Positions 1-8,504 of a DNA stretch of 8,504 bases are shown one piece after another (the stretch's first letter is position 1; each line of letters opens with the position of its first letter). The stretch is from a virus (taxonomy: Duplodnaviria; Heunggongvirae; Uroviricota; Caudoviricetes): the IMG/VR virus record IMGVR_UViG_2609459840_000006; one strand, written 5' to 3'. Position numbers and translations under genes: made by a program. Below the pieces are notes generated by a model. It was not told where the DNA came from and did no database searches. It saw only the letters and a list, made by a program, of their open reading frames with translations.

Positions 1-146
1 CTTACACCGCTTCTCAACCCGGTACGCACCAGAAAATCATTGATATGGCCATGAATGGCGTTGGATGCCGGGCAACTGCCCGCATTATGGGCGTTGGCCT
101 CAACACGATTTTACGTCACTTAAAAAACTCAGGCCGCAGTCGGTAA
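1..146 (+). CDS. insA: IS1 InsA, C-terminal part (5'-partial; frame starts at nt 3)
   Basis: Frame 3 reads [47 protein letters not shown] then TAA at 144-146, matching the InsA C-terminus as I recall it. Confidence 0.85.
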
Positions 147-568
147 CCTCGCGCATACAGCCGGGCAGTGACGTCATCGTCTGCGCGGAAATGGACGAAC
201 AGTGGGGCTATGTCGGGGCTAAATCGCGCCAGCGCTGGCTGTTTTACGCGTATGACAGTCTCCGGAAGACGGTTGTTGCGCACGTATTCGGTGAACGCAC
301 TATGGCGACGCTGGGGCGTCTTATGAGCCTGCTGTCACCCTTTGACGTGGTGATATGGATGACGGATGGCTGGCCGCTGTATGAATTCCGCCTGAAGGGA
401 AAGCTGCACGTAATCAGCAAGCGATATACGCAGCGAATTGAGCGGCATAACCTGAATCTGAGGCAGCACCTGGCACGGCTGGGACGGAAGTCGCTGTCGT
501 TCTCAAAATCGGTGGAGCTGCATGACAAAGTCATCGGGCATTATCTGAACATAAAACACTATCAATAA
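65..568 (+). CDS. insB: IS1 InsB frame; in vivo expressed as InsAB' transposase by -1 frameshift at the A6C motif (122-128)
   Basis: 167-aa ORF in the -1 frame relative to insA. The slippery run ttaaaaaac at 120-128 sits in the insA/insB overlap, and the stop at 566-568 lies inside the right IR. Confidence 0.85.
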
Positions 569-583
569 GTTGGAGTCATTACC
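561..583. repeat. IS1 right terminal inverted repeat (23 bp)
   Basis: atcaataagttggagtcattacc is the reverse complement of the canonical IS1 end ggtaatgactccaacttattgat. Confidence 0.75.
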
Positions 584-589
584 AAAGTT

Positions 590-625
590 ATTAAAAATGG
601 GGCGTTGAAACGCCCCCAAAAATAA
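590..625 (-). terminator. Rho-independent terminator, probably for the porin transcript
   Basis: GC stem ggggcg/cgcccc (599-604 / 611-616) with loop ttgaaa; on the minus strand it is followed by a U-run (atttttaa). It lies 14 bp from the IS1 end. Confidence 0.5.
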
Positions 626-654
626 AGGGTAATATATAACAGAAGGTTTGTATA

Positions 655-740
655 GTTAGAAGCAAGGTTGTGCTTCTAAAGGAAGTGGCTTGAGGGAGCC
701 ACTTATATGTTGGGGAGGCAAAGCCTCCCACAACATATCT
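655..740. other. Three consecutive stem-loops in the porin 3' region
   Basis: agaagca-aggttg-tgcttct (659-678); gtggct-tgaggg-agccac (685-702); and a long hairpin atatgttggggaggc-aaa-gcctcccacaacatat (705-738, about 15 bp stem with one bulge), followed on the plus strand by cttttag. Confidence 0.4.
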
Positions 741-753
741 TTTAGTAATCAAA

Positions 754-1836
754 TTAGAACTGGTAAACCATACCTACAGCAACGATATCATCGGTAGCAA
801 CGCCAGATGCTTTCGTGAAATCGCTCTTATCAATCAGGTTGATTTTGTAGTCAACAAAAGTGGACATATTTTTGTTGAAGTAATAGGTTGCACCTACATC
901 AACATATTCAACCAGGTCCTGATCACCCCAAACACCCAAGTCTTTTCCTTTAGAATGCAGGTAAGCAACGGATGGACGCAGGCCGAAGTCGAACTGATAT
1001 TGTGCAACAGCTTCGAAGTTTTGTGCTTTGTTGGCAATATGGTTATTACCAAAAACAGTCATGTTCTGGGTTTCAGAATAGGTGGTGGCCAGATAGATGT
1101 TGTTCGCATCATATTTCAGACCAGCTGCCCATACTTCAGCATTTTGACCAGAAGCATTCAGACCGTTGTTACCGTAGATAACCTGATTATTAGTGCGATC
1201 AGATTTAGCATAGGTTGCACCCACGCCGAATCCTTCATACTCATAAGTAGTTGAGAAACCGAAACCATCGCCATTAGCTTCAGTTACTTCATTTCGGTCA
1301 TTTTTGCCCTGATACTGAGCTGCAAAGTTCAGGCCATCAACCAGACCAAAGAAGTCGTTGTTACGATAAGTTGCAACACCTGTGGTGCGACCAGTCATGA
1401 ATACATCTGTTTGGGTCCAGGTATCGCCACCGAATTCTGGCAGAACGTCAGTCCACGCACCGATGTCGTATGCTACACCGTAGTTACGGCCGTAATCGAT
1501 TGAGCCGTAGTCACCGAATTTCAGGCCTGCAAATGCAAGACGGGTTTTGTCTTTGGAGGAACCTTGAGATTCAGCGCGGTTGCCTTTGAATTCATATTCC
1601 CACTGACCGAAACCAGTCAGTTGATCGTTGATTTGGGTTTCACCTTTGAAGCCAAGACGGGCATAAGTAGTATCACCATCATCTGCATCATTAGAGGAGA
1701 AGTAGTGCTTAGCATTAACTTTCCCGTACAGATCCAGCTTGTTACTGTCTTTATTATAAATTTCAGCTGCCTGAGCAGACATCGCCATCAGTACTGATGC
1801 AGCTACAGCAGAAATTGCCACTGTTAATTTTTTCAT
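754..1836 (-). CDS. nmpC: Outer-membrane general porin, NmpC / phage Lc type (OmpC/OmpF/PhoE family), 360 aa
   Basis: N-terminal signal peptide [23 protein letters not shown]|AEIYNK, porin motifs throughout and the C-terminal aromatic ..VGMVYQF. The sequence matches my memory of NmpC/Lc. ATG at 1834-1836 on the minus strand. Confidence 0.9.
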
Positions 1837-2165
1837 CGTGAGCCCTTTTTTTTGAACTATTATTAAAAAATGATGTCACTGCGCGATAAATATTCATCTA
1901 ATCAATGTGATTATTTCAAGATGTAAGTTTTAGTTTCTCATTTAATTTGTGAAGTAGATCTCTATTTTTATCTGAACTTTTTCTATCGAAACCTATTTAT
2001 GGCTCTTATTTGAACAAAAATAAACCTATTAGCTAATTTATATTAATGGCTGTTATTTATGGGGGTTCTATAATTCGGCAGTTTAATTTAAATCAACTAA
2101 AAATAACGTCTGAAATTATTTATTGGTTATTTGTTGAGGTTTTCTTATGTATTTGTGGTGGAGTT

Positions 2166-2194
2166 TTGAACACTCGGTAGCATTCTCATAAATA
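2166..2194 (+). promoter_or_regulatory. Candidate sigma70 late promoter (pR'-like) upstream of the lysis cassette
   Basis: TTGAAC (2166-2171), 17-bp spacer, TAAATA (2189-2194); resembles lambda pR' (TTGACT-17-TAAATT) as I recall it. A weak hairpin plus T-runs at about 2259-2300 could be a tR'-like terminator. Unverified. Confidence 0.25.
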
Positions 2195-2424
2195 TCATTC
2201 AGCGGTTTACGTACGTAAAAAATTGGTTATGCTGTTAAGAGTGGTTACTTCGTCACACAGCTTAAACCCGCCGTCGAGCTGGTTTTTCCATTTTTTGAGT
2301 CTCGATATTAGCTGATAACTCAATACCTGAGTTATTCACTGACTCCGAGTCTGTTACGTTTCTGCTTTTTTGCGATACGTTGTATTCCCTCAATTTACAC
2401 CCGCTTTGTCTGCGAGGTGGGGTT

Positions 2425-2640
2425 ATGAAATCCATGGATAAGTTAACAACGGGTGTCGCCTATGGCACCTCAGCAGGTAGTGCCGGTTACTGGTTTTTAC
2501 AGCTGCTCGATAAAGTCACGCCCTCACAGTGGGCAGCAATAGGTGTGCTGGGTAGCCTGGTATTTGGCCTGCTGACGTACCTGACAAACCTTTATTTCAA
2601 GATTAAAGAAGATAAGCGCAAGGCTGCGAGAGGTGAATAA
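2425..2640 (+). CDS. S: Class II holin (pinholin), phage 21 S-type, 71 aa with dual-start motif
   Basis: [28 protein letters not shown].. with Met1-Lys2-Ser3-Met4 dual start and two TMDs, close to S21 from memory. Strong SD gaggtgg upstream of the ATG at 2425. The track's start at 2380 is a TTG extension and was rejected. Confidence 0.88.
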
Positions 2641-3137
2641 TGCCTCCATCATTACGAAAAGCCGTTGCTGCTGCTATTGGTGGCGGAGCAATTGCTATAG
2701 CATCAGTGTTAATCACTGGCCCAAGTGGTAACGATGGTCTGGAAGGTGTCAGCTACATACCATACAAAGATATTGTTGGTGTATGGACTGTATGTCACGG
2801 GCATACAGGAAAAGACATCATGCTCGGTAAAACGTATACCAAAGCAGAATGCAAAGCCCTCCTGAATAAAGACCTTGCCACGGTCGCCAGACAAATTAAC
2901 CCGTACATAAAAGTTGATATACCGGAAACAACGCGCGGCGCTCTTTACTTGTTCGTTTACAACGTGGGCGCTGGCAATTTCAGAACATCGACGCTTCTTC
3001 GCAAAATAAACCAGGGCGATATCAAAGGCGCATGTGATCAGCTACGTCGCTGGACATATGCTGGCGGTAAGCAATGGAAAGGTCTCATGACTCGTCGTGA
3101 GATTGAGCGTGAAATCTGTTTGTGGGGTCAGCAATGA
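2640..3137 (+). CDS. R: SAR endolysin (phage 21 R-type lysozyme), 165 aa
   Basis: N-terminal Gly/Ala-rich signal-anchor-release segment ([20 protein letters not shown]) and catalytic residues at E35, D44, T50 as in R21. The ATG overlaps the holin stop (TAATG). Confidence 0.9.
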
Positions 3138-3601
3138 ACAGAGTAACCGCGATTATCTCCGCTCTGGTTATCTGCATCATCGTCTGCCTGTCATGGGCTG
3201 TTAATCATTACCGTGATAATGCAATCGCCTACAAAGAACAGCGCGATAACAAGGCCAGTGAACTGGAGAAGGCGAACGCCACCATTACTGACATGCAGCA
3301 GCGCCAGCGTGATGCTGATGCACTCGATGATAAATACACGAAGGAGTTAGCTGATGCGAAAGCTGAAAATGATGCTCTTCGGCGCAAGCTTGATAATGGT
3401 GGTCGGGTGCTCGTCAAAGGAAAATGCCCTGTGCCATCCTCAGCCGAAACCTCCAGCGCCTCCGGCATGGGCAATGATGCCACCGTCGAACTCTCTCCAG
3501 TTGCTGGACGAAACGTTCTCGGTATCCGGGACGGAATTATCCGCGACCAAACAGCACTGAGAACGCTTCAGGAATACATCAGGACGCAATGCCTTCGATG
3601 A
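3134..3601 (+). CDS. Rz: Rz i-spanin (inner-membrane spanin subunit), 155 aa
   Basis: [30 protein letters not shown].. is near-identical to the lambda Rz N-terminus, with one TMD and a coiled-coil periplasmic domain. The ATG at 3134 overlaps the R stop (ATGA); the track start at 3122 is GTG. Confidence 0.88.
3354..3560 (+). CDS. Rz1: Rz1 o-spanin lipoprotein, embedded in the +1 frame of Rz, 68 aa
   Basis: [19 protein letters not shown].. has a signal peptide with lipobox (VVGC) and a Pro-rich mature part ([16 protein letters not shown]). Strong SD aaggag 7 nt upstream of the ATG. Lies entirely inside Rz. Confidence 0.8.
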
Positions 3602-3775
3602 TAGCGATAATTTTACTCATCATCCTTCACATCTGGCTCTGTAGACAGGGTGGTGCTCACTTCTGGAGTGAATCCAGATTAAACATCTCATTGCTGATGC
3701 TTGATATTGAGCATTTTGCGCGCGGTAAGGGGCTGCGTTGAGATAAGAGCCAGTCATTACAAATACCAGGATTTA

Positions 3776-3801
3776 GCCTCGCATTCGCGGGGCTTTTTAT
3801 T
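3776..3801 (+). terminator. Rho-independent terminator downstream of the lysis cassette
   Basis: gcctcgc-attc-gcggggc (7-bp stem with one G.U pair) followed by tttttatt. Confidence 0.5.
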
Positions 3802-3807
3802 GCCATT

Positions 3808-3840
3808 ACAAAAGCCACTTCCTACAGAGTGGCTTTGATA
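3808..3840 (-). terminator. Rho-independent terminator for the leftward accessory operon
   Basis: aaagccact-tcctacag-agtggcttt; on the minus strand the 3' arm runs into cttttg. Confidence 0.45.
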
Positions 3841-3882
3841 ATGGCTTATACCCTACACGGGATAACTTAACTGATATCCCTT

Positions 3883-4047
3883 TTAAAGGATAAAGGTATT
3901 CAAGCCTGACACATCATGCGCTGTATCGTCGCCGTATTCCCGTATTAACAGAGACCGTAGCCCGACGGGGAACTCCTTCTGCGCGAGTGTGTGGGAATAA
4001 TCAAAAACGATGCACACCGGGGTTACCGGGTACACATATTTCATCAT
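3883..4047 (-). CDS. Hypothetical small protein, 54 aa (absent from the ORF track, apparently because of a length cutoff)
   Basis: Hand translation: MMKYVYPVTPVCIVFDYSHTLAQKEFPVGLRSLLIREYGDDTAHDVSGLNTFIL*. It lies 45 bp downstream of the ybcV-like stop and just upstream of the minus-strand terminator. The SD is weak. Confidence 0.3.
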   Translation of the reverse strand: MMKYVYPVTPVCIVFDYSHTLAQKEFPVGLRSLLIREYGDDTAHDVSGLNTFIL

Positions 4048-4092
4048 GCCAGCGAGTCCGGTTCTGGCACGGAAGAAACCGGACGTTATGAT

Positions 4093-4992: not shown

Positions 4993-5004
4993 GGGCGGCG
5001 ACCT
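4993..5004. other. cosN 12-nt cohesive-end sequence (gggcggcgacct)
   Basis: Exact match to the lambda cohesive end GGGCGGCGACCT, preceded by ..aggttacg, the lambda right end. Confidence 0.8.
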
Positions 5005-5101
5005 CGCGGGTTTTCGCTATTTATGAAAATTTTCCGGTTTAAGGTGTTTCCGTTCTTCTTCGTCGTAACTTAATGTTTTTATTTAAAATACCCCCTGAAA
5101 A

Positions 5102-5156
5102 GAAAGGAAACGACAGGTGCTGAAAGCGAGCTTTTTGGCCTCTGTCGTTTCCTTTC
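5102..5156. repeat. cosB R-element inverted repeat (terminase small-subunit binding sites R2/R1)
   Basis: Perfect 15-bp inverted repeat gaaaggaaacgacag (5102-5116) / ctgtcgtttcctttc (5142-5156), separated by 25 bp; a related tttccgttcttcttcg lies at about 5047-5062 (R3-like). Confidence 0.6.
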
Positions 5157-5181
5157 TCTGTTTTTGTCCGTGGAATGAACA

Positions 5182-5727
5182 ATGGAAGTCAACAAAAAGC
5201 AGCTGGCTGACATTTTCGGTGCGAGTATCCGTACCATTCAGAACTGGCAGGAACAGGGAATGCCCGTTCTGCGAGGCGGTGGCAAGGGTAATGAGGTGCT
5301 TTATGACTCTGCCGCCGTCATAAAATGGTATGCCAAAAGGGATGCTGAAATTGAGAACGAAAAGCTGCGCCGGGAGGTTGAAGAACTGCGGCAGGCCAGC
5401 GAGGCAGATCTCCAGCCAGGGACTATTGAGTACGAACGCCATCGACTTACGCGTGCGCAGGCCGACGCACAGGAACTGAAGAATGCCAGAGACTCCGCTG
5501 AAGTGGTGGAAACCGCATTCTGTACTTTCGTGTTGTCGCGGATCGCAGGTGAAATTGCCAGTATTCTCGACGGGATCCCCCTGTCGGTGCAGCGGCGTTT
5601 TCCGGAACTGGAAAACCGACATGTTGATTTCCTGAAACGGGATATCATCAAAGCCATGAACAAAGCAGCCGCGCTGGATGAACTGATACCGGGGTTGCTG
5701 AGTGAATATATCGAACAGTCAGGTTAA
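5182..5727 (+). CDS. nu1: Terminase small subunit Nu1, 181 aa
   Basis: MEVNKKQLADIFGASIRTIQNWQEQGMPVLRGGGKGNEVLYDSAAVIKWY.. is essentially identical to lambda gpNu1 from memory, with a winged-HTH N-terminus. The 3' end overlaps the A start as in lambda. Confidence 0.95.
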   Translation: MEVNKKQLADIFGASIRTIQNWQEQGMPVLRGGGKGNEVLYDSAAVIKWYAKRDAEIENEKLRREVEELRQASEADLQPGTIEYERHRLTRAQADAQELKNARDSAEVVETAFCTFVLSRIAGEIASILDGIPLSVQRRFPELENRHVDFLKRDIIKAMNKAAALDELIPGLLSEYIEQSG

Positions 5728-7168
5728 CAGGCTGCGGCATTTTGTCCGCGCCGGGCTTCGCTCACTGTTCAGGCCGGAGCCACAGACCGCCGTTGAATGG
5801 GCGGATGCTAATTACTATCTCCCGAAAGAATCCGCATACCAGGAAGGGCGCTGGGAAACACTGCCCTTTCAGCGGGCCATCATGAATGCGATGGGCAGCG
5901 ACTACATCCGCGAGGTGAATGTGGTGAAGTCTGCCCGTGTTGGTTATTCCAAAATGCTGTTGGGTGTTTATGCCTACTTCATAGAGCATAAGCAGCGCAA
6001 CACACTTATCTGGTTGCCGACGGATGGTGATGCCGAGAACTTTATGAAAACCCACGTTGAGCCGACCATCCGCGATATTCCGTTGCTGCTGGCGCTGGCT
6101 CCGTGGTATGGCAAAAAGCACCGGGATAACACGCTCACCATGAAGCGTTTTTCCAATGGTCGTGGCTTCTGGTGCCTGGGCGGTAAAGCGGCAAAAAACT
6201 ACCGTGAAAAGTCGGTGGATGTGGCGGGGTATGATGAACTTGCTGCCTTTGATGAGGATATTGAACAGGAAGGCTCTCCGACGTTCCTTGGCGACAAACG
6301 TATTGAAGGCTCGGTCTGGCCAAAGTCCATCCGTGGCTCCACCCCCAAAGTGAGAGGTACCTGCCAGATTGAGCGTGCAGCCAGTGAATCCCCGCATTTT
6401 ATGCGTTTTCATGTTGCCTGTCCGCACTGCGGGGAGGAGCAGTACCTTAAATTTGGCGATAAAGAGACGTCGTTTGGCCTCAAATGGACGCCGGATGATC
6501 CCTCCAGCGTGTTTTATCTCTGCGAACATAATGCCTGCGTCATCCGCCAGCAGGAACTGGACTTCACTGATGCCCGTTATATCTGCGAAAAGACCGGGAT
6601 CTGGACCCGTGATGGCATTCTCTGGTTTTCGTCATCCGGTGAAGAGATTGAGCCGCCGGACAGCGTGACCTTTCACATCTGGACGGCGTACAGCCCGTTC
6701 ACCACCTGGGTGCAGATTGTCAAAGACTGGATGAAAACGAAAGGGGATACGGGAAAACGTAAAACCTTCGTAAACACCACGCTCGGTGAGACGTGGGAGG
6801 CGAAAATTGGCGAACGTCCGGATGCTGAAGTGATGGCAGAGCGGAAAGAGCATTATTCAGCGCCCGTTCCTGACCGTGTGGCTTACCTGACCGCCGGTAT
6901 CGACTCCCAGCTGGATCGCTACGAAATGCGCGTATGGGGATGGGGGCCGGGTGAGGAAAGCTGGCTGATTGACCGGCAGATTATTATGGGCCGCCACGAC
7001 GATGAACAGACGCTGCTGCGTGTGGATGAGGCCATCAATAAAACCTATACCCGCCGGAATGGTGCAGAAATGTCGGTATCCCGTATCTGCTGGGATACTG
7101 GCGGGATTGATCCGACCATTGTGTATGAACGCTCGAAAAAACATGGGCTGTTCCGGGTGATCCCATAA
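5702..7168 (+). pseudogene. A: Terminase large subunit A, truncated after codon 488 by IS186
   Basis: GTG start (as in lambda); MNISNSQVNRLRHFVRAGLRSLF... is near-identical to lambda gpA through ..KKHGLFRVIP, then TAA at 7166-7168 inside the IS186 terminal repeat. Lambda gpA is 641 aa, so about 150 C-terminal residues are missing from this reading frame. Confidence 0.9.
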
Positions 7169-7186
7169 GCGCTAACTTAAGGGTTG
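7164..7186. repeat. IS186 terminal inverted repeat (gene A-proximal end)
   Basis: cataagcgctaacttaagggttg; its reverse complement is found at 8480-8502. Confidence 0.75.
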
Positions 7187-7334
7187 AACCATCTGAAGAA
7201 TGCGACGCCTCGGTGCCTCGTTAAGACGATGCCTCGCGTTCTTCAATTGCGTTTTGTAGGCTGTCAGGGATACTGTCCCACGAATGGCCACCTGTAAGCT
7301 CCAGATGACCATTTTTGTTATTCTCCACAACGAG

Positions 7335-8447
7335 TTAGTTCTTCTTTTCGGATCCGGCACTTCTGGGGGGGAAATCCAGCGATGGCTGGATTATGTCGTC
7401 AATTAAAAATGCGGCGAGTAGATTAGCAAATATCCACGCTTTCGCGAGTTCAGGTTCCTTTGCACGCAAAGCATCCAGGTGCAGCAAACTTTTGAGCCGC
7501 TTAAAAGCCAGTTCAATTTGCCATCGCAGACGGTAACAATCAGCCACTTGCTCTGCTGAATATTCATCTTCCGGTAATGATGTTAGCAATAGCACATGGC
7601 CCGCTGCTTCCAGCGTTTCCGCCTGAACTACTCGTCCTTTTCGACGATTCTCGCTGAGCAGTCGGGTTTTACTGATTAATGCTTTTTCGGGAGGAAGTGA
7701 TACGGCAATGAGACGTGCCGGAAAGGGAGCTCCGGCTTTTTTATTACCTGAATTGCCTATCATTACAGTGGTTTCACCGTTCTTACCGCAATCCAGCCCG
7801 CGCAGAAAACCCATCATGTCAAAGCGCATTCCTTCTGCAGTTAACCAGCGCAATCCTCGCCAGTGAACCCGGACGATATAATCAGCTTCTCCAAAAGCAA
7901 GTGAGCGGATACATTCGGGACGCGAACCGAATCCCCGGTCAGCAATGCGTATCTCGTCTGCCGTTTGCGCAAATCGGTCCAGCCGTTCAGCGTCTCTGCT
8001 GTCGGTTAGCTCAAAATCAGTGAACTGACAGGTATGAGGATCATATCCCATATGTAGTCGCCATTCAGCGCTGCCGCCCCCGGGCGCACTGATTGCTGTT
8101 CCATCGACAAGACGCAATCTCTTTCCGCTTGTACAACCCGTAACTGCGGCGCGTACAGCAAGTGTTTGTGCGGCAAGTATGCCAAACCAGTCGGCGGCAT
8201 TCCGCAGCCGCTTCAGGAGAGCCACGTCAGATAATGTTGCAACGTCATGGAGCTGAGCCCATGCAGTGACTTCACGTAATGACATCCCCCCGGGGCCGTA
8301 AGCCAGCCCCAGACGTAGCAGAGTTGCAGCATCACGAATTTCGCGGCGGCGGGTTAGAGCCCCGGCATTACGTGCCGAAGTATCCAGTTCTTCGGGCTTA
8401 CCAATATGGGCCAGAATTGCTGACCAGTTATCGTGAGAGTAATTCAT
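7335..8447 (-). CDS. IS186 transposase (IS4-family DDE transposase), 370 aa
   Basis: MNYSHDNWSAILAHIGKPEELDTSARNAGALTRRREIRD.. matches the IS186 transposase as I recall it. ATG at 8447; the track start at 8453 is GTG. Confidence 0.9.
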   Translation of the reverse strand: MNYSHDNWSAILAHIGKPEELDTSARNAGALTRRREIRDAATLLRLGLAYGPGGMSLREVTAWAQLHDVATLSDVALLKRLRNAADWFGILAAQTLAVRAAVTGCTSGKRLRLVDGTAISAPGGGSAEWRLHMGYDPHTCQFTDFELTDSRDAERLDRFAQTADEIRIADRGFGSRPECIRSLAFGEADYIVRVHWRGLRWLTAEGMRFDMMGFLRGLDCGKNGETTVMIGNSGNKKAGAPFPARLIAVSLPPEKALISKTRLLSENRRKGRVVQAETLEAAGHVLLLTSLPEDEYSAEQVADCYRLRWQIELAFKRLKSLLHLDALRAKEPELAKAWIFANLLAAFLIDDIIQPSLDFPPRSAGSEKKN

Positions 8448-8479
8448 CGGCACGTTAAATCATATCAGGCGTAATACCA

Positions 8480-8502
8480 CAACCCTTAAGTTAGCGCTTA
8501 TG
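8480..8502. repeat. IS186 terminal inverted repeat (transposase-proximal end)
   Basis: caacccttaagttagcgcttatg is the reverse complement of 7164-7186. Confidence 0.75.
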
Positions 8503-8504
8503 GG

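Follow-up and report, generated by a model that had tools for sequence, protein, structure and literature searches.

The question raised by this locus is whether a long reading frame lying opposite to the lysis genes of a decayed prophage still encodes a working phage porin. The stretch of DNA analysed (the window) is 8,504 nucleotides long. It was estimated, with a probability of roughly 85%, that positions 754..1836 hold an intact NmpC/Lc allele, a porin gene of lambdoid phages, carried as a moron on the opposite strand between Q and the S-R-Rz lysis cassette. The protein, the locus and its position, the IS5 lesion of the K-12 copy, the sRNA of the 3′ UTR and expression as a prophage moron have all been described previously, and the present copy can be read against that background.

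The porin reading frame and its alleles

The ORF listing of the window gives a single long frame at this place, which begins with an ATG at 1836..1834, ends with a TAA at 756..754 and spans 360 amino acids, in full agreement with the coordinates of the first-pass annotation. The gene and its leader are as follows.

754..1836, minus strand: porin coding sequence, 360 aa, NmpC/Lc family; RefSeq WP_000737263.1
1768..1836, minus strand: signal peptide, 23 aa, cleaved between SAQA and AEIYNK; equal at 23/23 residues to the sig_peptide of Lc in GenBank J02580

Judged from its sequence, the gene encodes a real and complete general porin precursor of the OmpC/OmpF type, with a Sec signal peptide. It matches the Pfam Porin_1 profile (PF00267) from end to end (1-337/337) with an E value of 3.6e-152 and a score of 507 bits (cutoff 23.7), and it is a member of PHROG 410 (match 1-360/360, 745 bits). 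Residues 24-360 align with the PDB porins OmpK37, OmpC, PhoE and OmpF at E values of 1e-135 to about 1e-115. Such matches, which reach from end to end of the 16-strand-barrel family, indicate that the frame cannot be a chance ORF. The mature N-terminus, AEIYNK, aligns with the first residue of the crystallised OmpC and OmpF chains. At the other end the protein closes with VGMVYQF, and a C-terminal Phe is the aromatic residue required for outer-membrane assembly. The loop-3 constriction is likewise kept, with PEFGGD and with K39, R60, R99, D130, E134 and R150, which in the alignment equal OmpF K16, R42, R82, D113, E117 and R132.

In all of this (family and fold class as predicted by sequence comparison, end-to-end alignment, constriction residues and PEFGG) the protein resembles OmpC, OmpF, PhoE and OmpK37. 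Unlike OmpC, OmpF and PhoE, it is phage-borne, has a 3′ UTR bearing its own sRNA, and shares only 62-64% identity with OmpF/OmpC. More exactly, it is 61.9% identical to OmpF and 64.4% to K-12 OmpC, whereas identity reaches 91.7% both with the Lc protein of PA-2 and with K-12 NmpC once IS5B is taken out. The first-pass annotation had called a complete NmpC/Lc-type porin here, from signal peptide to C-terminal Phe, and this call was upheld. The annotation had also stated that nmpC of K-12 is broken by an IS5 near its 3′ end, and IS5B does lie 58 nt before that end (“after codon 346”). The coding frame of the window is uninterrupted and free of IS5, as had been claimed. Comparison with the relatives brought out no inactivating change, the constriction residues, PEFGG and the terminal Phe all being retained in a coding sequence equal to that of the temperate coliphage ev099.

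Compared as DNA, the 1.8-kb locus (600..2400) shares 91.4% identity with the PA-2 record along the full length, and 99.6% with ev099. Within the porin coding sequence there are 0 nt differences from ev099, and the differences from ev243 number 10, all of them synonymous; the codon differences from ev207 comprise 66 synonymous and 21 nonsynonymous changes. Since the differences between alleles are mostly synonymous, the porin protein is under purifying selection. An alignment of nine phage and prophage alleles with OmpF showed an essentially invariant N-terminal half, and variation among the nine alleles occurs mainly at residues 182-187, 216-231, 263-267, 294-312 and 335-347. By way of the OmpF alignment, these residues would fall in the external-loop regions L4-L8, with boundaries that we take to be those of the OmpF structure. 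Loop-restricted variation of this kind is what one would expect of a receptor or antigen exposed at the cell surface.

The locus is also common. At least 80% of the 1.8-kb segment occurs in one piece in 2,466 of the 5,426 complete E. coli genomes, and 90 records from the complete genomes are at least 99% identical to it. In genomes that carry the porin gene, the median number of matching places is 2.

The prophage around the gene

The remaining elements and genes of the window, apart from the flanks of the porin gene, are listed here in order.

1..583, plus strand: right-hand part of an IS1, with insB at 65..568 (Pfam DDE_Tnp_IS1, E=3.3e-77); terminates in ...AAGTTGGAGTCATTACC at 583
2425..3601, plus strand: lysis cassette, made up of a dual-start holin of S21 type (2425..2640), a lysozyme of SAR-endolysin type (2640..3137), Rz (3134..3601) and Rz1, the last within 3354..3560
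between Rz/Rz1 and cosN, minus strand: DUF1398 gene and YlcI-like gene, placed by gene order
4993-5004: lambda cosN sequence, downstream of Rz/Rz1
5182..5727, plus strand: Nu1, by Pfam match
5702..7164, plus strand: truncated gene for the terminase large subunit, by Pfam matches to GpA_ATPase and, in part, GpA_nuclease
7165..8504, minus strand: complete IS186-type element with inverted repeats CATAAGCGCTAACTTAAGGGTTG at both ends; its outer end is the window end

The lysis genes were assigned by Pfam matches, by the RefSeq annotation of identical DNA and by the annotation of phage 21. On its sequence, the late region is of the DLP12/phage-21 type. Holin, lysozyme and Rz/Rz1 all lie on the plus strand, so that, as first annotated, the porin gene does point against the lysis cassette and precede it. 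The layout likewise agrees, as proposed, with that of nmpC in DLP12 (quuD, opposite-strand nmpC, essD, rrrD, rzpD) and of lc in PA-2.

The further claim that the gene sits between the Q region and the holin stands on the holin side only, for IS1 occupies 1..583 and has taken the place of the Q side. Homology to the IS-free relative PSS-13 begins at 584; in PSS-13 and ev099, the Q antiterminator gene quuD (Pfam PF06530) stops 18 nt short of that position. Strain ES1 has the same IS1 junction, and on the far side of its IS1 is a truncated integrase adjoining ybhC; the entire int-to-Q segment must therefore have been lost in that lineage. At the right-hand end, IS186 cuts the terminase gene at codon ~488/641 (the full gene in ES1 is 1926 nt), and homology to all relatives ends at 7164. 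The prophage is a decayed remnant, neither inducible nor packageable. Besides the lysis genes, the porin and its 3′ sRNA region make up the only obviously self-sufficient function that it retains.

Comparison with the known carriers of this module places the window copy more closely. With PA-2 (J02580) it shares the position and orientation before the lysis genes, an identical signal peptide, exact CRP sites and a conserved 3′ UTR; unlike Lc, the window porin is 5 residues shorter and has different sequences in loops L4, L5, L6 and L8. PA-2 is a viable phage, whereas the window prophage lacks the int-to-Q segment and its terminase gene is broken. With DLP12 of K-12 it shares the module quuD / ipeX region / nmpC / essD-rrrD-rzpD, and the first ~148 residues of the porin are identical. 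It differs from DLP12 in that the K-12 copy is split by IS5B and the window copy uninterrupted, in the IS1 that takes the place of the quuD side, and in having no borD downstream of Rz. In ev099 (LR597635 / NC_049953) the nucleotide-identical coding sequence stands in the same Q-porin-holin arrangement, and ev243 encodes an identical porin protein; both differ from the window in being complete phage genomes with Q. PSS-13 has the same porin layout but is IS-free and has kept quuD.

Flanking regions, predicted expression and the putative 3′ sRNA

The flanks of the gene hold the following features.

1837..2424, both directions: AT-rich divergent regulatory region of porin and holin, 588 nt, GC 0.28-0.37
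1945..1965, minus strand: predicted CRP site 1 (ATAGAGATCTACTTCACAAAT), an exact match to the misc_binding feature of J02580
2240..2260, minus strand: predicted CRP site 2 (CTGTGTGACGAAGTAACCACT), an exact match to the PA-2 record
1816..1848, minus strand: Shine-Dalgarno AAGGG (1848..1844) and start codon, with the site (mRNA -9..+21) at which the RybB 5′ end is predicted to pair
589..753, minus strand: porin 3′ UTR, the equivalent of the IpeX sRNA region, ~165 nt as compared with the 167 nt reported for IpeX of DLP12
589..616, minus strand: intrinsic terminator of the porin/IpeX transcript, GGGGCGTTTCAACGCCCC + ATTTTTAATA, from a terminator scan and alignment

An AT-rich region upstream of the gene had been pointed out in the first-pass annotation, and GC is indeed 0.28-0.29 over 1801-2250, versus 0.41-0.49 within the porin gene. 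The intergenic region has 96% mean identity to those of PA-2 and K-12, and is nearly invariant in the 130 nt before the ATG. A simple sigma-70 consensus scan of 500..2700 detected no promoter, and for this reason the position of the porin promoter can only be guessed. One guess would be TTGAAA at 1919-1914 and GAATAT at 1895-1890, separated by an 18-nt spacer, which would put CRP site 1 near -72. The AAGGG Shine-Dalgarno lies 7 nt upstream of the porin ATG. RybB is predicted to form, with its 5′ end, a duplex of -22.4 kcal/mol over the ribosome-binding site and the opening codons (equalled by 2/300 shuffles), which would fit the RybB control that has been reported for nmpC mRNA.

The gene had also been credited with a terminator of its own. 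An intrinsic terminator does exist, with a stem at 616..599 followed by the T tail ATTTTTAATA, but it lies ~140 nt beyond the porin stop codon, across the IpeX sRNA region, and not directly after the gene. It is intact, and the end of IS1 is just beyond it. Aligned with the quuD-nmpC spacers of K-12, PA-2 and PSS-13, the 3′ UTR has a mean column identity of 95%, a figure that includes the flank past the IS1 junction. It folds into four stem-loops with a minimum free energy of -58.5 kcal/mol (z=-7.8). According to reviews, IpeX is produced from the phage porin promoter within the porin transcript, is then processed out, and represses OmpC/OmpF. Scanning all of the window against Rfam at E<=1 returned neither IpeX nor any other credible RNA family. 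Since Rfam holds no IpeX model, the assignment made here draws on identity to the K-12 region and on the secondary literature. The weak Rfam matches obtained, two miRNA families on the cosB palindrome (5096-5162) and STnc560 (3673-3864), fell well short of their gathering scores and were set aside. The “ORF1” annotated in PA-2 antisense to the 3′ end of lc was treated as spurious, and the equivalent place in the window has no ORF of at least 40 aa.

Taken together, these features suggest how the module could work. A promoter within the AT-rich upstream region would transcribe the porin gene independently of phage late transcription, and CRP (through the two conserved sites annotated in PA-2), temperature, and RybB acting at the start codon would probably modulate the output. 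Once exported, the precursor would assemble into a trimeric diffusion pore, adding to OmpC/OmpF or taking their place. The structured 165-nt 3′ UTR would be processed to IpeX, leading to less OmpC/OmpF synthesis. The net effect could be a swap of the major surface porin, with permeability changed and a phage or colicin receptor removed or altered. From older work with PA-2, such a porin swap would be expected to exclude OmpC-dependent phages.

It is conceivable that the order of importance is the reverse, and that the selected products are mainly the IpeX sRNA and the change in surface receptor (that is, superinfection exclusion), with pore function incidental. This is possible, though it seems somewhat doubtful. 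Literature reports that IpeX represses ompC/ompF would suit it, as would a 165-nt 3′ UTR at least as conserved as the coding sequence (95% over four aligned sequences) and highly structured (z=-7.8). Variation concentrated in the external loops also looks as if surface recognition drives evolution. However, the pore-lining residues and the N-terminal half are invariant and synonymous changes predominate, which argues that a working channel has been maintained. A primary role for IpeX would in any case complement an intact NmpC/Lc porin more than compete with it.

Another means by which such a gene could persist is simply that too little time has passed. It would then be an intact but silent, or “quiescent”, porin gene, kept only since decay of the prophage is recent and contributing nothing to the ordinary outer membrane. 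The uninterrupted nmpC of E. coli B is reportedly a quiescent porin gene, as the title of Prilipov et al. 1998 has it, and an intact nmpC therefore need not be expressed. The absence of a promoter from the consensus scan fits this view, and the very AT-rich upstream DNA would be typical of DNA silenced by H-NS. In addition, 0 nt differences from ev099 suit recent acquisition as well as they suit selection. Silence is nevertheless unlikely, considering that homologous copies are expressed. In LF82 lysogens, the NmpC gene of prophage Perceval, which carries the same locus at 91.2% identity, was expressed 10-fold above the local background. In CFT073, two nmpC copies were strongly induced at 37 C at both the RNA and the protein level. 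NmpC is also reported as abundant or highly expressed in strain AW1.7. The mostly synonymous substitutions across alleles point to long-term purifying selection on the protein, and the regulatory flanks are conserved as much as the gene is. From the homologous loci of LF82 and CFT073, we infer that the present copy of the intact NmpC/Lc porin would also be expressed in its lysogen. Loop-restricted variation, along with the survival of porin and IpeX in a decayed prophage, is consistent with selection at the level of the host, though it falls short of proving this.

Whether late transcription crosses the porin gene depends on where the Q-dependent late promoter lies. One feature of the intergenic region bears on this.

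2264..2296, plus strand: terminator-like hairpin and T tract, candidate tR′, ~130 nt upstream of the holin; read from the sequence, a simple terminator scan having raised no flag

Its stem pairs perfectly in K-12, while a single mismatch occurs in the window and in PA-2; a second terminator-like hairpin on the plus strand occurs at 709-743. Work cited in a study of the DLP12 lysis module places a promoter that responds to Q and RpoE upstream of essD, and given the cloned fragment (-121..+650), its start site would fit only between the porin and holin genes. The late promoter of phage 21, pR′, starts 7 nt after Q, with the Q-binding element and terminator immediately downstream, and the structural paper on Q21 draws the general Q cassette with the same promoter-after-Q order. 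QuuD is a distant relative of Q21 (E=7.6e-7). In phages that have no porin but a Q gene of 87% identity (1H12 and others), the similarity breaks off 24 nt ahead of the Q stop, and the cargo is unrelated. Local alignments of their post-Q regions with either candidate region of the window were no better than shuffles. Between the published intergenic promoter and one placed right after Q, the intergenic position is the more likely. A late promoter there would leave the porin module between Q and its promoter, uncrossed by late transcription.

The phage 21 precedent, with pR′ starting 7 nt after Q, is the reason for proposing a late promoter in the 188-nt Q-porin spacer. This spacer would then be used on both strands, with IpeX and its terminator on the minus strand and a Q-dependent promoter and terminator on the late strand, and Q-modified polymerase would traverse IpeX and the entire porin gene in the antisense direction on its way to the holin gene. 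Such an arrangement is decidedly improbable. If it were true, prophage induction would be coupled to shut-off of porin and IpeX, and the promoter would have been lost at the IS1 junction, which lies 18 nt beyond the end of Q, with IpeX spared.

Names in the databases and significance

Identical copies of the window porin are already present in RefSeq as WP_000737263.1, to which PGAP gives the name “porin OmpC”. That the gene is the host's own ompC has next to no chance of being right: PGAP names the protein “ompC: porin OmpC” and its score with the NCBIfam model NF007841 (“porin OmpC”) is 515 bits, above the cutoff of 484, but NF007841 is a subfamily model and not an equivalog, identity to K-12 OmpC (b2215) is 64.4% versus 91.7% to Lc/NmpC, the neighbours are phage holin, endolysin, cos and terminase instead of micF and rcsD, and genomes with the porin gene usually match at two places (median 2). 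An ompC orthologue is thus refuted by synteny and identity, and the label arose because the subfamily model matched. Scores with the NCBIfam equivalog models for OmpF (NF007446, 480.3 versus a cutoff of 583) and PhoE (NF007544, 504.7 versus 599) were below cutoff, and both of these assignments were rejected.

Copies at this locus that carry the PGAP name “porin OmpC” should accordingly be read as phage NmpC/Lc alleles and not as ompC. A strain with the present copy would have a third potential general porin, together with a predicted sRNA able to lower OmpC/OmpF. An extra porin and IpeX could be relevant wherever porin loss is invoked for antibiotic or phage resistance. Clearly, little of this is new; the gene is a correct but ordinary member of a common family of E. 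coli prophage porins, and the value of the analysis is in annotation and interpretation.

Several phage records name the porin of the same locus after the OmpD of Salmonella, and nmpC has been described in the literature as “a gene similar to ompD”. In ev243 and PhiR68_2, the “OmpD” coding sequence is annotated as a split pair. Frameshifted porins were considered for these two phages and rejected, as the canonical ATG yields an intact 360-aa ORF in each, and the split pairs are therefore annotation artefacts.

The interval between Q and S as a cargo site

The interval between the Q antiterminator gene and the holin gene S, where the porin lies, is a hot spot for cargo. In phage 1H12 (L015 3979-7028), whose Q gene is 87% identical, three genes stand in place of the porin, one for a Blc lipocalin, one YbgA-like and one hypothetical; the same interval of phage 21 (L018 1001-1366) holds tRNA-Asn and tRNA-Thr. 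Phage "434B" (L008, OL657227, 1-3485) is a laboratory derivative of 434 and carries the K-12 DLP12 segment Q-nmpC::IS5-S; this viable phage has taken up the late region of the cryptic prophage along with its IS5-broken porin.

Insertion sequences at the two ends

The right end of an IS1 occupies window 1-583, and its junction at 583/584, which adjoins the porin/IpeX terminator, lies 18 nt from the expected stop of quuD. In strain ES1, the far side of the same IS1 is a truncated integrase next to ybhC, so the early region has been deleted in its entirety, from int to Q. At the other end, an IS186-type element interrupts the terminase large-subunit gene. This junction was shared by none of 5,426 complete E. 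coli genomes, every match ending at 7164. Since the window starts within IS1 and finishes exactly at the end of IS186, it resembles a contig assembled from short reads and interrupted at repeats.

Features of the late-gene region

Features in the window:
709-743, + strand, terminator-like hairpin with T tract, overlapping the first hairpin of IpeX (the sRNA region of the porin 3′ UTR)
2264-2296, + strand, terminator-like hairpin with T tract, some 130 nt ahead of the holin gene
3589..3741, 50-aa ORF, PHROG 11822, unknown function
4993-5004, exact lambda cosN 12-mer, 178 nt upstream of Nu1
5096-5162, strong palindrome within the cosB region
7165-8504, IS186-type element, complete, bounded by inverted repeats of 23 bp

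Either of the two hairpins could be the Q-antiterminated tR'. The stem of the one nearer the holin gene is perfect in K-12 and has one mismatch both in the window and in PA-2.

K-12 DLP12, phage 21 and 434B have a bor/iss-like lipoprotein gene after Rz, whereas window 3602-4092 has none; past the 50-aa ORF, about 350 nt hold no convincing ORF. A weak STnc560 Rfam match in this region (E=0.92) is not credible, and miRNA-family matches on the cosB palindrome are spurious.

Database annotation of the porin

Identical porin copies (L001 6754-7836, L002 6171-7253) are named "ompC: porin OmpC" by PGAP in RefSeq, a label that stems from the subfamily HMM NF007841. For the phage porin this is a systematic misnomer, and it could mislead analyses of porin loss. 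Other entries differ in gene structure (L010 355-1498, L011 355-1498 and L013 356-1498, the loci of ev243, PhiR68_2 and ev207): those of ev243 and PhiR68_2 split the porin into a pair of CDSs that overlap, and that of ev207 lengthens its N-terminus by 20 codons. Because all three share the canonical ATG and keep the 360-aa frame intact, the split and extended CDSs are annotation artefacts.
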